A stretch of DNA of 45,144 nt from a virus (lineage: Duplodnaviria; Heunggongvirae; Uroviricota; Caudoviricetes): the IMG/VR virus record IMGVR_UViG_2851976983_000003; one strand, given 5' to 3'. The notes beneath the pieces are model-generated. The model saw only the letters and a list, made by a program, of their open reading frames with translations, was not told the DNA's origin and ran no database searches. Positions 1 through 39,305 of this stretch are shown here, piece by piece (the first letter of the stretch is position 1; every line of letters begins with the position of its first letter). The position numbers were made by a program, and so were the translations under genes.

Positions 1-267
1 TTACTCTGCAGGTGAAGTCGGCCACTCAATATCAGGTGCGGTTGATGTATCAACACGGTTCAGCAACACCCGATACTTCTTCCAGGCTTCCAGCAACGAG
101 TTTTCTTCCTCCGTTGCGATCTCCAGATCTACAGCATCCTGAAGTGGCGCAATATGCTCACTGAATTCCTGGATGTAGAACTGTGTGGTGACGGTCTTCC
201 AGCCATTCGGCTCCTGCTGTATCGAAGCATACCAGGCTATTTCAATATCGCTATGCTGCGGCAGCAT
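1..267 (-). CDS. Tail fibre assembly (Tfa)-like protein, C-terminal-domain fragment; lacks the conserved Tfa N-terminus
   Basis: C-terminal ~40 aa ([29 protein letters not shown]) align with the C-termini of the full-length Tfa copies at 2519-3049 and 3078-3611; the upstream part is replaced by AT-rich DNA. Confidence 0.5.
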
Positions 268-323
268 TTAACCCCTTGTAATTCATCGCCATAATTGATT
301 TAATTCATAAACAAAACTATAAC

Positions 324-992
324 ATGGTGAAATTAATGAAAAAAAACACACATGATGGGGCTAAAATTTACACACCACTTACCCTAAAGCTTTATGACTG
401 GTGGGTTTTGGGAGTATCAAATCGTCTTGCATGGGGATGTCCTACAAAGGAACACCTTCTTCCACACTTTCTGGAACATTTAGGTAACAACCATCTGGAT
501 ATTGGTGTTGGAACTGGTTTTTACCTCACTCACGTACCTGAGAGTAGTCTGATATCTTTAATGGATTTGAACGAAGCTAGCCTGAACGCGGCATCTACAA
601 GGGCTGGGGAATCAAAAATTAAACATAAAATTAGCCATGATGTTTTTGAACCTTATCCCGCGGCGTTACATGGTCAATTTGATTCCATTTCCATGTTTTA
701 CCTTCTTCACTGCCTGCCTGGAAATATATCTACAAAAAGCTGTGTAATACGCAATGCTGCGCAGGCCTTAACTGACGATGGAACTCTATACGGAGCCACA
801 ATTCTTGGCGATGGAGTTGTGCACAATAGCTTCGGTCAAAAACTGATGCGCATTTACAATCAGAAAGGCATCTTTTCAAACACAAAAGATTCCGAAGAAG
901 GCTTAACACATATACTCTCAGAGCATTTCGAGAATGTTAAAACCAAGGTTCAAGGTACTGTAGTAATGTTTTCCGCTTCAGGGAAAAAATAG
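324..992 (+). CDS. Class I SAM-dependent methyltransferase-like protein (moron, AT-rich)
   Basis: Motif I-like LDIGVGTGFY followed by an acidic beta-2 end (LMDLNEASL) and a downstream DVFEP...FDSISMFYLLHCLP segment; GC content visibly lower than the flanking phage genes. Confidence 0.5.
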   Translation: MVKLMKKNTHDGAKIYTPLTLKLYDWWVLGVSNRLAWGCPTKEHLLPHFLEHLGNNHLDIGVGTGFYLTHVPESSLISLMDLNEASLNAASTRAGESKIKHKISHDVFEPYPAALHGQFDSISMFYLLHCLPGNISTKSCVIRNAAQALTDDGTLYGATILGDGVVHNSFGQKLMRIYNQKGIFSNTKDSEEGLTHILSEHFENVKTKVQGTVVMFSASGKK

Positions 993-1067
993 CATCCAAC
1001 CGCAGCACGTTCTTGCTTAAGACGTGCTGCGGCATAATCCCAATGATTACTCCCTGACAGGGTTCGT

Positions 1068-1145
1068 AGGCCACTCAACATCAGGTGCAGTTGATGTATC
1101 AACACGGTTCAGCAACACCCGATACTTTTTCCAGGCTTCCACCAC
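1068..1145. repeat. Second copy of a ~78 bp direct repeat (first copy ~20-97) corresponding to a tfa 3' end
   Basis: Near-identical nucleotide strings ...ggccactcaa(t/c)atcaggtgc(g/a)gttgatgtatcaacacggttcagcaacacccgatactt... at both positions, bracketing the methyltransferase-like gene. Confidence 0.65.
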
Positions 1146-1178
1146 CAGCACGACAAGATGCCGCATACAGTGACCCAG

Positions 1179-1397
1179 TCAGTCCAGTTTCCAGACAACC
1201 AGTGCGTCACCTTTTTGAAGGCGCTTTAAAGCACGTTTTAATCCAGGTCGGCCTGTCCTTGTTCCGCTTAATTTATCTTCAAATATTTGTTCACATCCTG
1301 CACAAACAAGAGCGTTTCGTTGCAGGCCTGTATTCTGGTCATTTGTTGATACCCTTACATAGCCAATCAGCACGCTGAATCTCCCGTCCAAAAGCAC
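1179..1397 (-). pseudogene. pin: Pin/Gin/Hin-family serine DNA invertase, 5' fragment only (about 64 N-terminal codons, then fused to the tfa 3' remnant)
   Basis: Translation VLIGYVRVSTNDQNTGLQRNALVCAGCEQIFEDKLSGTRTGRPGLKRALKRLQKGDALVVWKLD matches the invertase N-terminus including the catalytic-serine region, then stops; the family is ~180-190 aa. Confidence 0.75.
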
Positions 1398-1427
1398 AAA
1401 TCATGCCATGCAGGCCAGAAACGGCCA

Positions 1428-1453
1428 TTATCTAAAACCTCGGTTTACAGGAA
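1428..1453. other. Inversion crossover site (gix/hix-like, 26 bp), outer boundary of the invertible tail-fibre segment
   Basis: ttatctaaaacctcggtttacaggaa is the reverse complement of a near-identical 26-mer at 4559-4584 (23/26 identical), and lies between the pin fragment and the alternative fibre segment. Confidence 0.65.
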
Positions 1454-1477
1454 ACGGTAAACAGGGCCAGGAACGCC

Positions 1478-2518
1478 GTGCAAAAAACTGGCGATACCTT
1501 GTCCGGTGGGCTTACTTTTGCAAACGACTCAATCCTTGCCTGGATTAGAAATACTGACTGGGCAAAGATTGGTTTTAAAAATGATGCTGACAGCGATACT
1601 GATTCATTCATGTGGTTTGAAACAGGCGACAACGGCAATGAATATTTCAAATGGAGAAGCCGCCAGGGCACCACAACAAAAGACCTGATGAATCTTAAAA
1701 GGGATGCTTTGTATGTTCTTGTTAAAGCCCTTTTCAGCAGTGAAGTAAAAATATCGACAGTCAATGCACTGAGGATTTTTAATTCATCCTTTGGTGCTAT
1801 TTTTCGCCGTTCTGAAGAAAGCCTGTATATCATCCCTACACGAGAAAATGAGGGTGAAAATGGAGATATTGGGCCATTAAGGCCATTCAGCATCGACTTA
1901 AGAACAGGAGTTGTGTCTGTTGGTAATGGTGCCAGGATTGATGGCGGGCTGGCACTTGGCACGAATAACGCGTTGGGTGGGAACTCAATTGTTCTTGGTG
2001 ATAATGATACCGGATTTAAACAGAATGGAGACGGTATTCTTGATGTTTATGCTAATAGTCAGCGTGTATTCCGCTTTCAGAATGGAGTGGCTATTGCTTT
2101 TAAAAATATTCAGGCTGGGGATGGTAAAAAATTTACGCTATCCAGCTCCAACAACTCCACGAAGAACGTAGGGTTTAATTTATGGGGGGCTTCATCAAGA
2201 CCAACTGTTGCAGAGCTTGGTGATGATTCAGGCTGGCATTTCTATAGTCAGCGAAATACAGATAACTCAGTAATATTTGCTGTTAACGGTCAGATACAGC
2301 CCAGCAACTGGGGGAATTTTGATTCCCGCTATGTGAAAGATGTTCGCCTGGGTACGCGTGTTGTTCAATTGATGGCGCGTGGTGGTCGTTATGAAAAAGC
2401 CGGACACGCAATTACCGGATTAAGAATCATTGGTGAAGTAGATGGCGATGATGAAGCCATCTTCAGACCAATACAAAAATACATCAATGGCACATGGTAT
2501 AACGTCGCACAGGTGTAA
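1478..2518 (+). CDS. Alternative side-tail-fibre C-terminal variable segment (Sv'-like); expressed only after inversion fuses it to the stf constant part
   Basis: The frame is open back through the crossover site (…ETVNRARNAVQKTGDTLSGG…) and matches the ETVN junction in the stf C-part; fibre-like Gly/Asn-rich sequence followed directly by a tfa gene. Confidence 0.7.
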   Translation: MQKTGDTLSGGLTFANDSILAWIRNTDWAKIGFKNDADSDTDSFMWFETGDNGNEYFKWRSRQGTTTKDLMNLKRDALYVLVKALFSSEVKISTVNALRIFNSSFGAIFRRSEESLYIIPTRENEGENGDIGPLRPFSIDLRTGVVSVGNGARIDGGLALGTNNALGGNSIVLGDNDTGFKQNGDGILDVYANSQRVFRFQNGVAIAFKNIQAGDGKKFTLSSSNNSTKNVGFNLWGASSRPTVAELGDDSGWHFYSQRNTDNSVIFAVNGQIQPSNWGNFDSRYVKDVRLGTRVVQLMARGGRYEKAGHAITGLRIIGEVDGDDEAIFRPIQKYINGTWYNVAQV

Positions 2519-3049
2519 ATGATGCAGCATTTAAAAAATATTAAGTCAGGAAGTCCAAAAACAAAAGAGCAATATCAGCTAACAAAGAATTTTGATGTTA
2601 TCTGGTTATGGTCCGAAGACGGAAAAAACTGGTATGAGGAAGTGAAGAACTTTCAGCCAGACACCATAAAGATTGTTTACGATGAAAATAATATTATTGT
2701 CGCTATCACCAGAGATGCTTCAACGCTTAATCCTGAAGGTTTTAGCGTTGTTGAGGTTCCTGATATTACCTCCAACCGACGTGCTGACGACTCAGGTAAA
2801 TGGATGTTTAAGGATGGTGCTGTGGTTAAACGGATTTATACGGCTGACGAACAGCAACAACAGGCCGAATCACAAAAGGCCGCGTTACTTTCCGAAGCAG
2901 AAAGCGTTATTCAGCCACTGGAACGCGCTGTCAGGCTGAATATGGCAACAGACGAGGAACGCACACGACTGGAAGCATGGGAACGCTACAGTGTTCTGGT
3001 CAGCCGTGTGGATACGGCAAATCCTGAATGGCCACAAAAGCCTGAATAA
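2519..3049 (+). CDS. tfa: Tail fibre assembly protein (Tfa', partner of the alternative fibre segment)
   Basis: 176 aa; [25 protein letters not shown]… typical Tfa N-terminus and C-terminal [14 protein letters not shown] motif; start overlaps the stop of the preceding gene. Confidence 0.85.
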
Positions 3050-3075
3050 AAATTAAGGCCCGATAGCGGGCCTCG
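3044..3075. terminator. Hairpin between the convergent tfa genes (bidirectional terminator candidate)
   Basis: aggcccg-atag-cgggcct stem-loop flanked by an A/T run. Confidence 0.5.
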
Positions 3076-3077
3076 TC

Positions 3078-3611
3078 TCATTCAGGTTGTTCGGGAAATG
3101 TTACTGGCAGGCTGGAGGTGTCTGTAGATTCGACTTTCTGCGCATAGAGCATCCACTCGGTTAATTTTTGTTTATTCTCGTCGGAAATGATGCCCAGCCG
3201 TAGCTGTGAGTCCCATAGCTGGGTTTTATCCCTGACAAGTTGCAACAGGCTTTGCTTTTCATTCTCTGCCTGCTGCCTCTGTTCCTCTTCGGTATAAGTT
3301 CGCTTTATCACTACGCCATCTTTGAACATCCATTTACCCGAAATATCAGCCCGGCGATTTGCTGTAATATCAGGTAATTCAACGACGCTTGCGCCTTCCG
3401 GATTAATTGCTGAAACATCCTTTTCAATACAAATAATAACGCCGTTATGGTCATAGACCATTTTCAAAGTGTCTGGCCGGAAATTCTTTTGTTCCTCATA
3501 CCAGTTTTTTCCATCATCTGAATAAAGCCATCTGATGTTAAATTGCTTTGTTAGCTGGTATTGCTCTTTTGTTTTAGGATTGCCAGCAGTAATGTTTTTT
3601 AAGTGCATCAT
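3078..3611 (-). CDS. tfa: Tail fibre assembly protein Tfa
   Basis: 177 aa, [24 protein letters not shown]…; directly downstream of the stf C-terminal segment. Confidence 0.85.
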   Translation of the reverse strand: MMHLKNITAGNPKTKEQYQLTKQFNIRWLYSDDGKNWYEEQKNFRPDTLKMVYDHNGVIICIEKDVSAINPEGASVVELPDITANRRADISGKWMFKDGVVIKRTYTEEEQRQQAENEKQSLLQLVRDKTQLWDSQLRLGIISDENKQKLTEWMLYAQKVESTDTSSLPVTFPEQPE

Positions 3612-3613
3612 AA

Positions 3614-7891
<4,278 letters not shown>

Positions 7892-30990: not shown

Positions 30991-31065
<75 letters not shown>

Positions 31066-31068
31066 ATA

Positions 31069-31144
<76 letters not shown>

Positions 31145-31146
31145 AC

Positions 31147-31223
31147 TGGACCGCCACCGGGGACTCGAACCTCGCACACTCAACTTAAAGGGTTGACGCT
31201 CTTTCCTGATGAACTGGTGACAG
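31147..31223 (-). tRNA. tRNA-like gene, atypical (anticodon loop CCUUUAA, nominal anticodon UUU; possibly degenerate)
   Basis: 77-nt foldable cloverleaf with encoded CCA, but two G-U pairs in the acceptor stem, C at position 8, C at position 33 and an A-C mismatch in the T stem. Confidence 0.45.
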
Positions 31224-31224
31224 T

Positions 31225-31300
31225 TGGTGGCCCTTGCTGGATTTGAACCAGCGACCTGGCGATTATGAGTCGCTCGCTCTCACCACTGAGCTAAAGGGCC
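31225..31300 (-). tRNA. tRNA-Ile2/Met-type (anticodon CAU; ileZ/ileX-like)
   Basis: 76-nt cloverleaf, acceptor ggccctt/aagggcc, anticodon loop ctcataa, T-loop ttcaaat, CCA. Confidence 0.8.
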
Positions 31301-31349
31301 GGGAGCAGAATAATAATGGTGCGTAATTAATTCTGCAATCTCATCCGTT

Positions 31350-32399
31350 TCAAACGATTAAATCCTGAACTTCCCTGACTGTCTGTTCAAAACGTCCTGT
31401 CTCCAGCTCAACACCAATCGCACAACGCCCCAGTGCCATCGCCGCTTTTACCGTTGAACCTGAACCCATAAAAAAATCTGCAACCAGGTCTCCCGGACGA
31501 CTGCTCGCGTTGATTATCTGCTGCAGCATTTCTGCCGGTTTTTCGCACGGATGTTTCCCTGGATAGTACTGCACCGGTTTATGCGTCCAGACATCGGTGT
31601 ACGGAACCTGCGCCGTCACACCGAAATACCGCCGCAAATTTTTATATTCACTCAGCAATTCCGTATACTGCCGGTTCAGCTCACTGTATGTGCTGACCAG
31701 CTGGTGGTGTGGTTTTTCCAGTTCCCCGCGCTGATGTTTTTCTGCCGCAACACGCGCAAACAACGCCTGCAATTTGTTGTAATCACCCTCGTTCGGTAAC
31801 TGCCACTGACTGGTACCAAACCAGTGCGAAGCCATGTTTTTCTTTCCGGTGGCTTCCGCTATCTGTTTTGACGTTATTCCCAGTGATTTACGCGCATCAC
31901 GAAAGTAAGAAATCAGCGGGGCCATGACGTGCTGTTTTAGCTCGCGCCCCTGTGCCACATAGCCATCATCTTTCGGGCGATACGGTCCCTGATAATGTTC
32001 TGCAAACAGAATGCGCTCTGTTGCCGGAAAATACGCCCGCAGACTTTCCTTATTGCACCCGTTCCAGCGTCCGGACGGCTTCGCCCAGATAATGTGGTTC
32101 AGCACATTAAAGCGCTCACGCATCATGATTTCGGTGTCAGATGCCAGGCGATGACCACAGAACAGGTAAAGACTTCCGGCAGGCTTCAGTACCCGCCAGA
32201 ACTGCGCCAGACACTGGTCCAGCCATTTCAGGTAATCATCGTCGCCCTCCCACTGGTTATCCCAGCCCTCGGGCTTCACTTTAAAGTATGGCGGGTCTGT
32301 GACTATCAGATCGACAGAGTTTTCCGGTAAGGTCTGGATAAATTTCAGGCAATCAGCGTTGATTAACTCACAACTGGATATTTTTACAGTATTAGTCAT
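31350..32399 (-). CDS. Orphan DNA methyltransferase (N6-adenine/N4-cytosine, DPPY motif)
   Basis: 349 aa; IVTDPPYF catalytic motif near the N-terminus and FMGSGST SAM-binding motif near the C-terminus; no adjacent restriction endonuclease gene. Confidence 0.85.
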   Translation of the reverse strand: MTNTVKISSCELINADCLKFIQTLPENSVDLIVTDPPYFKVKPEGWDNQWEGDDDYLKWLDQCLAQFWRVLKPAGSLYLFCGHRLASDTEIMMRERFNVLNHIIWAKPSGRWNGCNKESLRAYFPATERILFAEHYQGPYRPKDDGYVAQGRELKQHVMAPLISYFRDARKSLGITSKQIAEATGKKNMASHWFGTSQWQLPNEGDYNKLQALFARVAAEKHQRGELEKPHHQLVSTYSELNRQYTELLSEYKNLRRYFGVTAQVPYTDVWTHKPVQYYPGKHPCEKPAEMLQQIINASSRPGDLVADFFMGSGSTVKAAMALGRCAIGVELETGRFEQTVREVQDLIV

Positions 32400-32966: not shown

Positions 32967-33710
32967 CTAATCTGACGTCACACGCACCATTATACTTACT
33001 AAAGAAAAGTCATCATCAGGTCCGGCTCTCTCTATACGACGCAAAATGCCATTAGAAAACTTCTGACTATTACTCATCGTATTTGATGTAAATCTGGGGC
33101 GTTTTTCCCAAACGTTATGAACCCCATCAGACATGATACACAGATGATATACCCCGTTAATACTAGGTAAATCTTTCCATGTGATAAAATCACAGTCGTA
33201 TTCCATATCAACATTTGAGGCTATAGCCGTCGTTAAGATATTTTTGCCCGGTTTATCCTTCAAATCTCTGGGTTTAAAAATATTCTGATCAATTAGCATC
33301 TGATGCCTGGTATCGTCCTTCGTCAATTGGTATGCTTTCTTCTCTCCAATGCAATACAAACGACAATCACCAATATGACCAATAATAATTCCGCTATCAC
33401 AAACATAACAAAACGTAAGTGTAGTAGCAGCTTTATCGAACTCATCATTAACATCAGCTAACGACATAACCTTTCGCTTAACTTCATCAAATACATCCGG
33501 AACTGTGTCAAAAGATAAGCTTGTCAATGCTGAAAGTTCAGCAATTGCCATTGATGAAGCCTGACTGGCACCAGTGTATGAACCTACACCATCAGCTACG
33601 GCAAATAAGATGCCATCCCCTACAATTTTGGGAGGAAGCAATGAATCTTCGTTGACCCTACCTGGTTCTTTTGGATACGAGAATGATGAAGTCGCTATCA
33701 GCTGAATCAT
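32967..33710 (-). CDS. PP2C-family Ser/Thr protein phosphatase
   Basis: 247 aa; PP2C motifs AVADGVGS, GDCRLY, SDGV and a C-terminal acidic DDD cluster; start ATG overlaps the kinase stop (ATGA). Confidence 0.8.
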   Translation of the reverse strand: MIQLIATSSFSYPKEPGRVNEDSLLPPKIVGDGILFAVADGVGSYTGASQASSMAIAELSALTSLSFDTVPDVFDEVKRKVMSLADVNDEFDKAATTLTFCYVCDSGIIIGHIGDCRLYCIGEKKAYQLTKDDTRHQMLIDQNIFKPRDLKDKPGKNILTTAIASNVDMEYDCDFITWKDLPSINGVYHLCIMSDGVHNVWEKRPRFTSNTMSNSQKFSNGILRRIERAGPDDDFSLVSIMVRVTSD

Positions 33711-34471
33711 GACTCACTCCTTAAAAAAGAATGCACAAAATCAAACGCCACATCATCTATTGTCTGATATCTATCATCTTTATCCATCCTGGTACACTTC
33801 GCTATGATAGGCTTTATTTTTTTATCATCTAAATTTAAGTCCTCAATTAACCGCCCCACCGCATAAACATCAGTCTTAACTGAATACTCGGCATTATATA
33901 AAATCTCGGGAGCCATATATCTTGTACTTCCCATACGGGTACCGATCTCGGTCAATTTAGTGGTATCCCCTTCGGGATTTGTATCTTTTACCAGACCAAA
34001 ATCAGACACCTTGTATGTTCCGTCGCTAAATCGCAAGACATTAAATGGTTTTATATCTCTGTGTAAATAGCCTTTCGCATGGATGTGAGCTACACCATCT
34101 AATACCATTTTCACTATTGAAATTTTTTGATCTGTTGTAAGAAGGTTGTTCGTTATTTCGTGCTCAAGATCACATTCTGCTTTATCCATAATGAACCATG
34201 GATTCTCGGCAAACAAATCGCACAAATAAATAGGAACAATATTGCTATGTACGCAATGTGATTGATACACGACCTCCCTTTTAAAACGCCTTCTAAACTG
34301 CTCTATTTGCGCCAAAAGCTCTGGTTTTTCGGGGGCTAAAACCTTTCTAGCATAATCCCCACATTCACCCTTGTTGAGGTTGTAAACCTTAACGTGTTCA
34401 ACAAAGCCAAATGCACCCCTTCCAATCAACTGAATTCGTTTTATAAAGTAATTACCGTGCTGTTCTTCCAT
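33707..34471 (-). CDS. Hanks-type (eukaryotic-like) Ser/Thr protein kinase
   Basis: Complete catalytic motif set: G-loop GRGAFG, lysine in YARKV, HRDIKPFN catalytic loop, DFG, APE (YMAPE), DVYAVG. Start placed at MEEQHGNYF; the ORF track starts 25 codons upstream. AT-rich. Confidence 0.85.
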   Translation of the reverse strand: MEEQHGNYFIKRIQLIGRGAFGFVEHVKVYNLNKGECGDYARKVLAPEKPELLAQIEQFRRRFKREVVYQSHCVHSNIVPIYLCDLFAENPWFIMDKAECDLEHEITNNLLTTDQKISIVKMVLDGVAHIHAKGYLHRDIKPFNVLRFSDGTYKVSDFGLVKDTNPEGDTTKLTEIGTRMGSTRYMAPEILYNAEYSVKTDVYAVGRLIEDLNLDDKKIKPIIAKCTRMDKDDRYQTIDDVAFDFVHSFLRSES

Positions 34472-37753: not shown

Positions 37754-38080
37754 ATGACTAAAAATACTCGTTTTTCCCCCGAAGTCCGTCAGCGGGCGAT
37801 TCGTATGGTTCTGGAAAGTCAGGATGAATATGACTCACAGTGGGCGGCAATTTGTTCCATTGCCCCAAAGATTGGCTGTACGCCGGAGACTCTGCGTGTC
37901 TGGGTTCGCCAGCATGAGCGGGATACCGGGGGCGGTGATGGTGGGCTCACCAGCGCTGAACGTCAGCGTCTGAAAGAGCTGGAACGTGAAAATCGTGAAC
38001 TGCGCCGCAGTAACGATATCCTTCGCCAGGCTTCCGCTTATTTTGCGAAGGCGGAGTTCGACCGCCTCTGGAAAAAATGA
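37754..38080 (+). CDS. IS3-family transposase OrfA (HTH/leucine zipper)
   Basis: 108 aa, [50 protein letters not shown]…. Confidence 0.9.
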
Positions 38081-38967
38081 TGCCACTGCTGGATAAGCTG
38101 CGTGAGCAGTACGGGGTCGGACCGGTATGCAGCGAACTGCATATTGCCCCGTCAACGTATTACCATTGTCAGCAACAGCGACATCATCCGGATAAACGCA
38201 GTGCCCGTGCGCAGCACGACGACTGGCTGAAGAGAGAGATACAGCGCGTATACGATGAAAATCATCAGGTGTACGGTGTGCGTAAAGTCTGGCGTCAGTT
38301 GTTACGGGAAGGAATCAGGGTGGCCAGATGTACAGTGGCACGTCTCATGGCGGTTATGGGACTTGCCGGTGTTCTCCGGGGTAAAAAGGTCCGTACGACC
38401 ATCAGCCGGAAAGCCGTTGCCGCAGGCGACCGCGTAAACCGTCAGTTCGTGGCAGAACGACCTGACCAGCTGTGGGTGGCTGATTTTACTTACGTCAGCA
38501 CATGGCAGGGCTTCGTCTATGTGGCGTTTATCATTGATGTGTTTGCCGGATACATCGTGGGGTGGCGGGTCTCATCGTCTATGGAAACGACATTCGTGCT
38601 GGATGCGCTGGAGCAGGCGTTGTGGGCCCGTCGTCCGTCTGGCACCATCCATCACAGCGATAAAGGCTCTCAGTATGTGTCACTGGCCTATACGGAGCGA
38701 CTAAAAGAAGCCGGATTACTGGCATCAACAGGGAGTACAGGCGACTCGTATGACAACGCGATGGCTGAGAGCATCAATGGTCTTTACAAAGCGGAGGTAA
38801 TACACCGTAAGAGCTGGAAAAACCGTGCAGAAGTGGAACTGGCCACACTAACGTGGGTGGACTGGTATAACAATCGACGATTGCTGGGAAGGCTGGGCCA
38901 TACTCCTCCGGCAGAAGCAGAAAAAGCTTATTATGCTTCCATCGGAAACGATGATCTGGCAGCCTGA
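38077..38967 (+). CDS. IS3-family transposase OrfB (DDE integrase core)
   Basis: 296 aa with DDE/rve-type core (…WVADFTYV…HHSDKGSQY…DNAMAES…); overlaps orfA. Confidence 0.9.
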
Positions 38968-39149: not shown

Positions 39150-39305
39150 TTACTCCTCAGGTTCGTAAGCTGTGAAGACAGCGACCTCCGTCTGGCCGGT
39201 TCGGATTCGTACCTCGCAGAGGTCTTTCCTCGTTACCAGTGCCGTCACTATGACGGTTAAACAGATGACGATCAGGGCGATTAACATCGCCTTTTGCTGC
39301 TTCAT
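39150..39305 (-). CDS. hok: Hok/Gef-family type I toxin (HokD-like)
   Basis: 51 aa MKQQKAMLIALIVICLTVIVTALVTRKDLCEVRIRTGQTEVAVFTAYEPEE, a canonical Hok sequence; the in-frame upstream extension in the ORF track (39150-39362) could be a mok-like leader frame. Confidence 0.85.
   Translation of the reverse strand: MKQQKAMLIALIVICLTVIVTALVTRKDLCEVRIRTGQTEVAVFTAYEPEE

Follow-up and report, generated by a model that had tools for sequence, protein, structure and literature searches.

Two kinds of described loci are close to the DNA analysed here. In the DLP12 prophage of Escherichia coli K-12, a tail-fibre assembly fragment, a frameshifted class I methyltransferase gene and a further tail-fibre assembly fragment are located beside appY and ompT; we take this trio to be tfaX, ybcY (b0562) and tfaD. 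The invertible systems Mu G/gin, P1 C/cin and e14 P/pin and their P2-like equivalents have a pair of inverted 26-bp crossover sites, of which one falls in the side tail fibre gene (stf). Their two alternative stf C-termini each come with a separate tail-fibre assembly gene (tfa), and an invertase gene stands beside one crossover site. The window, a 45,144-nt stretch of one virus record (IMG/VR IMGVR_UViG_2851976983_000003; Caudoviricetes), contains a counterpart of the first kind at positions 1–1400 and a counterpart of the second kind directly next to it. The ybcY cassette is already known: the K-12 annotation includes it, and most lambdoid prophages of E. coli have it. In the reading we favour, with a probability of about 0.8, two histories meet in the window, one of a shared ybcY cassette and one of a later replacement of the tail-fibre module by a Mu/P2-type module with a broken invertase.

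Positions 1–1500 are 100% identical to the chromosomes of three Indian enterotoxigenic E. coli (ETEC) strains, 503025, 503440 and 503829, and 98.5% identical to ETEC H10407. In the matching ETEC genomes this stretch forms the end of a lambdoid prophage, and the potB stop codon lies 231 bp from window base 1. The lambdoid prophage is integrated next to potB, and positions 1–1400 make up its attachment-site end; further on come stf, lom and J, the genes for tail, head, terminase and lysis functions, then Q and the immunity region. The whole 1–1500 arrangement is present in 408 genomes, which include the ST131 strain JJ2434, where it occurs at another integration site, in a prophage near trpA/ompW.

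The ybcY gene is bracketed by two tfa 3' ends (Table 1). The original prediction, made from the letters of the window, described a direct repeat of about 78 bp, took its copies for duplicated tfa 3' ends, and proposed that the gene between them had been inserted as cargo by recombination between tfa-like sequences. The repeat itself is real: its two 79-nt copies align without gaps at 74 positions of identity (94%), which is not expected by chance in a 45-kb window, and in both the encoded peptide is the conserved motif at the C-terminus of tail-fibre assembly proteins (Pfam Caudo_TAP). Copy 1 is contained in an 88-residue frame that matches phrog_2341 over its full length (88/88) and whose residues 31–87 match the last 57 positions of Caudo_TAP (75–131 of 131); it is annotated as partial in RefSeq. 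This left remnant is not conserved as a gene: codon 4 is a nonsense codon in H10407, RefSeq marks an internal stop in the K-12 copy, and the C-terminus is scrambled in both ev243 and PhiR26_1. Copy 2 lies in a 39-codon frame that matches Caudo_TAP positions 104–130 of 131. In PhiR26_1 the gene order is J, lom, stf, an intact 194-residue lambda-type tfa, ybcY on the opposite strand, a 101-residue tfa fragment, a hydrolase and ompT, and copy 2 is the 3' end of this intact tfa. For copy 2, this is the outcome that the original prediction had itself named as a refutation, a repeat that belongs to an intact longer gene in related genomes. Copy 1 is what is left of an earlier tfa, and copy 2 the end of a tfa that works in related phages.

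K-12, PhiR26_1 and ev243 have the same layout, so that the flanking tfa 3' ends belong to the cassette in all its locations. In a four-way alignment with these three loci, window positions ~95–1144 are collinear and almost identical, including the divergent promoter region and a hairpin. Outward of ~95 (window 1–95), the left remnant is a mosaic in which K-12, PhiR26_1/ev243, JJ2434 and the window all differ, whereas the inward sequence is near-identical. On its right side, the cassette exists in three states, followed by the intact tfa in PhiR26_1, by a ~74-nt stub and another fibre module in ev243, and by the pin fusion in the window. At ~6720–6870 of ev243, ~74 nt of a tfa 3' end stand beside ybcY and are followed by an unrelated fibre and chaperone module; here the module was replaced a second time, independently, through a crossover in that very tfa tail. 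In lambda, a tfa of the same type is followed directly by ea47, and ybcY is absent. The cassette has at least four outer contexts, namely appY, an alpha/beta hydrolase with ompT, the potB attachment site, and, near ompW, a Rha/ash region. Tail-fibre modules and cargo thus have a common exchange sequence in the conserved tfa motif at the C-terminus.

The cassette DNA (268–1046, 779 nt) is present at 95–100% identity in 3833 of 5426 complete E. coli genomes (~70%). YbcY is encoded in 14 phage records at 98.6–99.5% protein identity, one of which labels it "putative uncharacterized protein YbcY". We rejected a recent cargo insertion in this prophage, as the same inner boundaries are found in K-12, ST131, H10407 and free phages. 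The product that recombination between the repeats would leave behind, with the potB flank, one repeat and the pin remnant but no ybcY, was found in none of the 5426 genomes at ≥80% query coverage; the best matches to it begin at query position 217, that is, with copy 2 alone. The predicted cargo insertion therefore stands in part: exchange does take place at tfa ends, and moron-like cargo does sit at the distal end of the tail-fibre genes, but the cassette was not assembled in this prophage, being a widespread unit with identical inner boundaries in every locus examined.

On the right, the window leaves the intact-tfa sequence at ~1142–1145, where homology to a pin/gin-family invertase starts in frame with the last ~30 tfa codons. 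The translation of the minus strand from 1397 to 1047 begins VLLDGRFSVLIGYVRVSTNDQ. A truncated pin does adjoin copy 2, as had been proposed; it is, however, not a piece of about 64 codons but a remnant of ~77 with an internal nonsense codon, so that the open frame ends after 64 codons and the invertase homology runs on to ~codon 77. The ORF at 1179–1397 matches Pfam Resolvase positions 2–73 of 145, the first half of the catalytic domain, and keeps the N-terminal serine motif (YVRVST). The remnant lacks the DNA-binding domain altogether, with no HTH_7 domain present, as well as most of the catalytic domain. By its domain content, the remnant would not function as a DNA invertase of the Gin/Pin/Cin/Hin type.

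Up to codon 64, the pin DNA is almost identical to the intact invertase gene of a P2-like prophage in strain SE11, and positions 1183–1480 are 93–96% identical to the invertase loci of Mu, D108, SfMu and P2-like (Xuanwuvirus) phages. Codon 65 is TGA here and an arginine codon in the intact genes (a CGA-to-TGA nonsense change); the twelve codons that follow it align only with more distant invertases and may resemble P1 Cin. P2-like prophages have an intact invertase and a like invertible layout (silent stf tip, tfa, tfa, stf) with another stf-tip cassette. Their module is located between tail genes and baseplate genes, and that of the window is joined to a protein annotated in RefSeq as "prophage tail fiber N-terminal domain-containing", downstream of lom and J. 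The pin–tfa fusion is an event of its own, distinct from the cargo insertion, and stems from the import of a Mu/P2-type invertible tail-fibre module. The proposal that pin was truncated as part of the cargo insertion does not hold, as the pin side derives from another phage type (Mu/P2). Because the arrangement is present in the 408 genomes, including the other integration site in JJ2434, the fusion is one old event that has since spread.

Both crossover sites of the invertible segment are intact; they are two inverted copies in the window, where none is expected by chance. Inversion of 1442–4570 in silico gives an open, in-frame alternative stf. The same state exists in nature: the prophage of strain TW10573, which has the same potB site and the same truncated pin, is the window with 1442–4570 inverted, with two mismatches in the first 5,061 nt (99.96% identical). 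This pair indicates that the segment still inverts after the truncation of pin. Junction queries for the inverted and the native state matched 135 and 216 genomes, respectively, at ≥80% coverage, and these counts are upper bounds. For both queries, the best 25 listed records are covered from the first query base and so include the pin–tfa join; each orientation is frequent in records that have this junction.

Lacking a DNA-binding domain, the 77-codon fragment cannot itself catalyse the inversion, which is presumably carried out in trans by a related invertase encoded elsewhere in the cell. There is a precedent in PinQ of prophage Qin, which inverts the P segment of prophage e14 (PMC12529663). 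JJ2434 encodes an intact P2-type invertase (NZ_CP013835.1, 954884–955484), ~0.53 Mb from its pin–tfa–ybcY prophage. The Fis-dependent enhancer of hin is 65 bp in length and is located ~100 bp from one hix site (PMC3798978). By analogy, such an enhancer is probably retained in the 5' part of pin, where the equivalent position, ~1275–1340, falls within the portion that is 93–96% identical to Mu gin DNA.

The constant part of stf is interrupted by an insertion of the IS21 family of insertion sequences (IS) at 5062–7020 (1,959 bp), which is lacking in 503025, 503440 and 503829. The element has a 340-residue ORF with rve and HTH domains (5146–6168, plus strand) and another open frame, ~278 codons long. 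Its ends are imperfect inverted repeats, and the 5-bp sequence TTTCG is apparently duplicated at the target. Owing to this insertion, the side tail fibre gene is broken in this copy of the prophage.

The history that we propose would begin with an old shared cassette, made up of the remnant of an earlier tfa, ybcY with its own sigma-70 promoter directed against the late operon, the hairpin, and the 3' end of a working tfa. This cassette would move between lambdoid prophages as a unit, with the exchange points inside the tfa ends. Later, in this lineage, the resident lambda-type stf C-terminus and the whole of tfa except its last ~30 codons would have been replaced by a Mu/P2-type module that brought in a constant stf part, an invertible segment with two stf-tip/tfa pairs, and an invertase. 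In the simplest version, the recipient was a lambdoid phage that already carried tfa–ybcY, and the donor was a P2- or Mu-type element. One crossover would have taken place in stf; at the distal join, invertase codon ~77 would have been fused to tfa illegitimately but in frame. The nonsense codon would have arisen later, in an invertase remnant that was already dead. With the crossover sites and the probable enhancer kept, the segment is still flipped, presumably by an invertase elsewhere in the cell.

The ORF at 324–992 has a GC content of 40.8%, compared to 51.0% for the window. Because the homologues and phrog_2132 match only residues 5–222 of the longer frame, ATG 336 is probably the start codon rather than ATG 324; it has GGTGA just upstream, and the 2-nt deletion in K-12 ybcY destroys exactly this codon. 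Two candidate promoters precede the gene. One, TTAACC-16-CATAAT at 268–295, was found by a consensus scan. The other, TTGATT-17-TATAAC (window 295–323), is the constitutive RpoD promoter that a genomic SELEX (systematic evolution of ligands by exponential enrichment) study of the RpoD holoenzyme lists for K-12 ybcY, and an H-NS site is located in the same spacer as the K-12 ybcY promoter (PMC3946193). From its own predicted promoter, ybcY is transcribed against the late operon. An 86-nt fold spanning the GC-rich hairpin between the convergent ybcY and tfa stop codons has a free energy of −33.6 kcal/mol (z = −6.35), and the hairpin sequence is kept in every cassette aligned; the terminator scan scored no T-run terminator there. 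The hairpin is a probable bidirectional transcription stop. With its own promoter hexamers, this hairpin, its atypical GC content and its absence from lambda at the same position, ybcY has the features expected of a moron.

The 3' end of ybcY and the hairpin are overlapped by a 45-residue RefSeq "hypothetical protein" (937–1074, minus strand), which K-12 records name "nucleocapsid protein"; this is apparently a false gene call that has been copied into many genomes.

The product of ybcY is a class I methyltransferase in fold. The ORF scores above the Pfam gathering thresholds for Methyltransf_12, Methyltransf_23, Methyltransf_25 and Methyltransf_11, and matches phrog_2132 with an E-value of 4.1e-156 over profile positions 1–218 of 218. 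The glycine-rich motif I, DIGVGTG (residues 59–65), and the acidic Asp81 at the end of strand 2 are invariant in 33 homologues. The AlphaFold2 model, with a predicted local distance difference test score (pLDDT) of 90.1 and a predicted template modelling score (pTM) of 0.87, has a seven-strand Rossmann-like sheet formed by residues 56–60, 76–80, 99–103, 119–125, 149–160, 202–210 and 213–221, of which the last two strands form a hairpin. The original prediction of an AT-rich gene with class I S-adenosylmethionine (SAM)-methyltransferase motifs is thus confirmed by the GC content and the four Pfam families, and the 222-residue protein, for which the lack of a Rossmann-like SAM fold would have counted as a refutation, is predicted to have the Rossmann-type sheet.

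Compared with the Protein Data Bank (PDB), the model gave more than 1300 methyltransferase matches in Foldseek at E ≤ 0.001. The top one is the bacterial phosphatidylethanolamine N-methyltransferase PmtA (8ys9; E 2.7e-12, template modelling (TM) score 0.66–0.71), followed by juvenile hormone acid methyltransferase, phosphoethanolamine N-methyltransferases, polyketide C-methyltransferase domains, SgvM, NovO/CouO, NodS and UbiG. A profile of the YbcY family, searched against solved structures, matched only juvenile hormone acid methyltransferase (E 8.6e-6) and UbiG. The nearest solved structures are mostly small-molecule or lipid methyltransferases, and there is no DNA methyltransferase among them. 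The 218-residue protein has no DNA methyltransferase Pfam domain, no (D/N/S)PP(Y/F) motif and no target-recognition domain. The earlier expectation of an enzyme of the small-molecule type rather than a DNA methyltransferase agrees with these fold neighbours and with the lack of DNA methylase domains. YbcY is 13–21% identical to PmtA (8ys9), DhpI (3ou2), juvenile hormone acid methyltransferase (7ec0) and UbiG (4kdc), values at which no membership can be claimed, and no counterpart of its family motifs LYDWWVL..SN..AW.C.T, HD, YLLHCLPG and YNxKGIFSN was identified in characterised enzymes.

NCBIfam, PADLOC and PHROGs gave no function assignment for YbcY. In NCBIfam, the equivalogs RquA (rhodoquinone biosynthesis) and CpaM scored 16.9 and 17.4 bits against cut-offs of 175 and 180, and we rejected both identities on these scores. 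We also set aside a role in a defence system, for which PADLOC gave only a chance-level match of 14 bits. Relatives at 56–70% identity are stand-alone chromosomal genes across the Enterobacterales, including Salmonella and Enterobacter, and the Salmonella and Enterobacter homologues stand in unrelated neighbourhoods that give no operon clue to the role. Among the Enterobacterales homologues, 58 alignment columns are invariant. The conserved residues of YbcY include C39, H57, H105-D106, H129-C130, H167-N168 and Y178-N179. An exhaustive homologue search returned 1320 representative clusters at E ≤ 0.001; the domain fusions in distant relatives are mostly unannotated extensions, with one fusion to a cytochrome P450 and one to RCC1, which are suggestive at best of small-molecule chemistry. 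The ybcY ORF is intact in the great majority of genomes, and one 90%-identity cluster contains 6589 member sequences of 222 residues. With the exception of the K-12 pseudogene, seven E. coli alleles have few differences, mostly synonymous (for example, 4:1 and 5:1 in intact alleles).

Judging from its model and family conservation, we conclude that YbcY is in all likelihood a functional class I methyltransferase of an uncharacterised subfamily, and that its substrate is most probably a small molecule or a lipid, not DNA. The idea of a lipid or hydrophobic substrate comes from its nearest structural neighbours, since PmtA, juvenile hormone acid methyltransferase and UbiG act on such substrates. 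We infer that YbcY is expressed in lysogens, is silenced by H-NS, and methylates either a lipid head group or a small molecule, the latter probably hydrophobic. A bolder proposal, which we regard as rather unlikely, has two separate parts: YbcY would be a selected lysogenic-conversion enzyme that methylates a membrane lipid head group or a hydrophobic small molecule, and, independently of this, the pin remnant would be kept for a cis enhancer that lets other invertases of the cell go on switching the orphan segment. If the first part were true, YbcY would alter the envelope or metabolic properties of the lysogen.

Several readings compete with that of a shared cassette and a later module replacement. 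The insertion of ybcY as cargo into this very prophage through tfa-like recombination, with the truncation of pin as part of the same event, could draw on the mosaic left remnant (1–95) and on the at least four outer contexts of the cassette, and exchange within tfa ends does move the unit. Yet inner boundaries that do not vary between loci indicate a single ancient assembly; in PhiR26_1 an intact tfa ends in the right copy, the pin remnant originates from another type of phage, and none of the 5426 genomes has the repeat-recombination product without ybcY. We consider a local insertion quite improbable. The favoured reading itself faces several points. The order of events is unproven, and a phage that lacked ybcY could have formed the pin–tfa fusion first and received the cassette afterwards. 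For pin codons 65–77, no exact parent was found, and 1145–1182 aligns only with distant invertases. The two orientation counts may include loci with an intact pin. Neither the genome of the window nor its closest relative, 503025, yielded an intact invertase; 503025 is not among the 60 matches listed for a query with the C-terminal half of the invertase. For ybcY, no experimental data or functional study was found in the literature searched, and the gene is frameshifted, and so dispensable, in K-12.

This frameshift also enters the view that the whole of 1–1400 is decaying prophage debris without current function, ybcY included. Both tfa pieces and pin are pseudogenes, a K-12 ybcY mutant had no phenotype in the single screen found (PMC2408971), and stf in the window is broken as well, by an IS element. 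We hold this view to be very unlikely for ybcY and its surroundings taken as a whole: against it stand the intact ORF in the great majority of genomes, the size of the 222-residue cluster, the few and mostly synonymous substitutions and the strong conservation of the family across the Enterobacterales, and the cassette is kept in viable, plaque-forming phages. Least probable of all is a nucleic-acid (DNA or RNA) methyltransferase that would act in anti-restriction, epigenetic control or tRNA modification. The missing DNA methyltransferase domain, motif and target-recognition domain speak against such an enzyme, as do the small-molecule and lipid enzymes among the best structural and profile matches. 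The prophage has a separate DNA methyltransferase gene (31350–32399), the homologues at 56–70% identity are stand-alone chromosomal genes in Salmonella and Enterobacter, and ybcY runs against the late operon from its own promoter.

Table 1. Positions of the cassette, the pin remnant and the invertible tail-fibre segment in the window
Feature	Position	Strand	Remarks
Left tfa remnant ORF, 88 residues	1–267	−	Covers the C-terminal third of a tail-fibre assembly protein; the 30 N-terminal residues are unrelated
Direct repeat, copy 1	17–95		Within the left tfa remnant ORF; 79 nt, 94% identical to copy 2
ybcY promoter and 5' region	268–335	+	Two candidate promoters
ybcY, predicted class I SAM-dependent methyltransferase	336–992	+	218 residues from ATG 336; 222 residues from ATG 324 (ORF 324–992)
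GC-rich hairpin	1000–1032		Between the convergent ybcY and tfa stop codons
Right tfa stub, last ~30 codons and stop of a lambda-type tfa	1047–1144	−	Near-identical to the 3' end of the intact PhiR26_1 tfa up to ~1142
Direct repeat, copy 2	1066–1144		Within the 39-codon frame 1047–1166
pin/gin-family invertase remnant, ~codons 1–77	1145–1373	−	TGA at codon 65 (1179–1181)
Proximal 26-bp crossover site (pix/gix-like)	1428–1453	+	TTATCTAAAACCTCGGTTTACAGGAA
Invertible segment, 3,129 bp	1442–4570		Two alternative stf C-termini and their two tfa genes
stf C-terminal part, expressed orientation	3614–5061	−	Upstream, severed from the N-terminal part by the IS21-family insertion
Distal 26-bp crossover site, inside stf	4559–4584	−	Two mismatches to the proximal site

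Other features are located further along the window. A gene pair for a Ser/Thr protein kinase and a PP2C phosphatase (32967–34471, minus strand) lies downstream of the Q antiterminator, a position where lambdoid phages hold accessory genes. The DNA methyltransferase gene (31350–32399, minus strand) is followed by three tRNA genes in the region 30991–32399. The third of these is a tRNA-Met(CAT) according to ARAGORN and a tRNA-Ile according to RefSeq; a lysidine-modified CAT anticodon would fit tRNA-Ile. In the early region, an IS3-family element, IS1203 (37754–38967), is located next to hokD (39150–39305).

Striking as it looks, the arrangement at 1–1400 is standard, long-annotated E. coli prophage mosaicism, and phage types routinely exchange modules in the way that gave the pin fusion. 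Only the orphaned switching segment and the very common ybcY methyltransferase are of modest interest. The window and TW10573 form a clean natural case of a host-range segment that went on flipping after its own invertase had died, and they support a view of Gin/Pin-family invertases as a resource that all prophages in a cell share. Few phage-borne genes of E. coli without an assigned function are as widespread as ybcY, whose product now has a confident structural model. As this model groups the protein with small-molecule and lipid methyltransferases, a lipidomic or metabolomic test would be easy to design.

The closest described locus is that of DLP12 in K-12, with which the window has in common the gene order, orientation, inner boundaries, hairpin and promoter hexamers, and with which it is 98.2% identical in the ybcY DNA. 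Different from the window, in which ybcY is intact and the right-hand tfa is cut to ~30 codons and fused to the pin remnant, K-12 has a 2-nt deletion in ybcY and a longer right-hand tfa that is fused to a terminase remnant. In the viable lambdoid phages PhiR26_1, ev243, 2G7b, Kati and Turner, the cassette directly follows the tail-fibre genes, as it does in the window. PhiR26_1, however, has an intact 194-residue tfa in place of the pin–tfa fusion, and these phages continue into the hydrolase and ompT, whereas the window goes straight to the attachment site. Like Mu G, P1 C, e14 P and the P2-like modules, the tail-fibre segment of the window has 26-bp inverted sites, one of them in stf, two stf C-termini, each with a tfa, and an invertase gene beside one crossover site. 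Compared to Mu G, P1 C and e14 P, it resides in a lambdoid prophage and is fused to a lambda-type stf N-terminal domain, and its invertase is cut to ~77 codons with a nonsense codon. The e14 P segment with PinQ is alike in that a tail-fibre segment is located in one prophage and a serine invertase is encoded elsewhere; in e14 the resident pinE is intact, whereas the resident invertase of the window is dead and leaves the segment reliant on another element.

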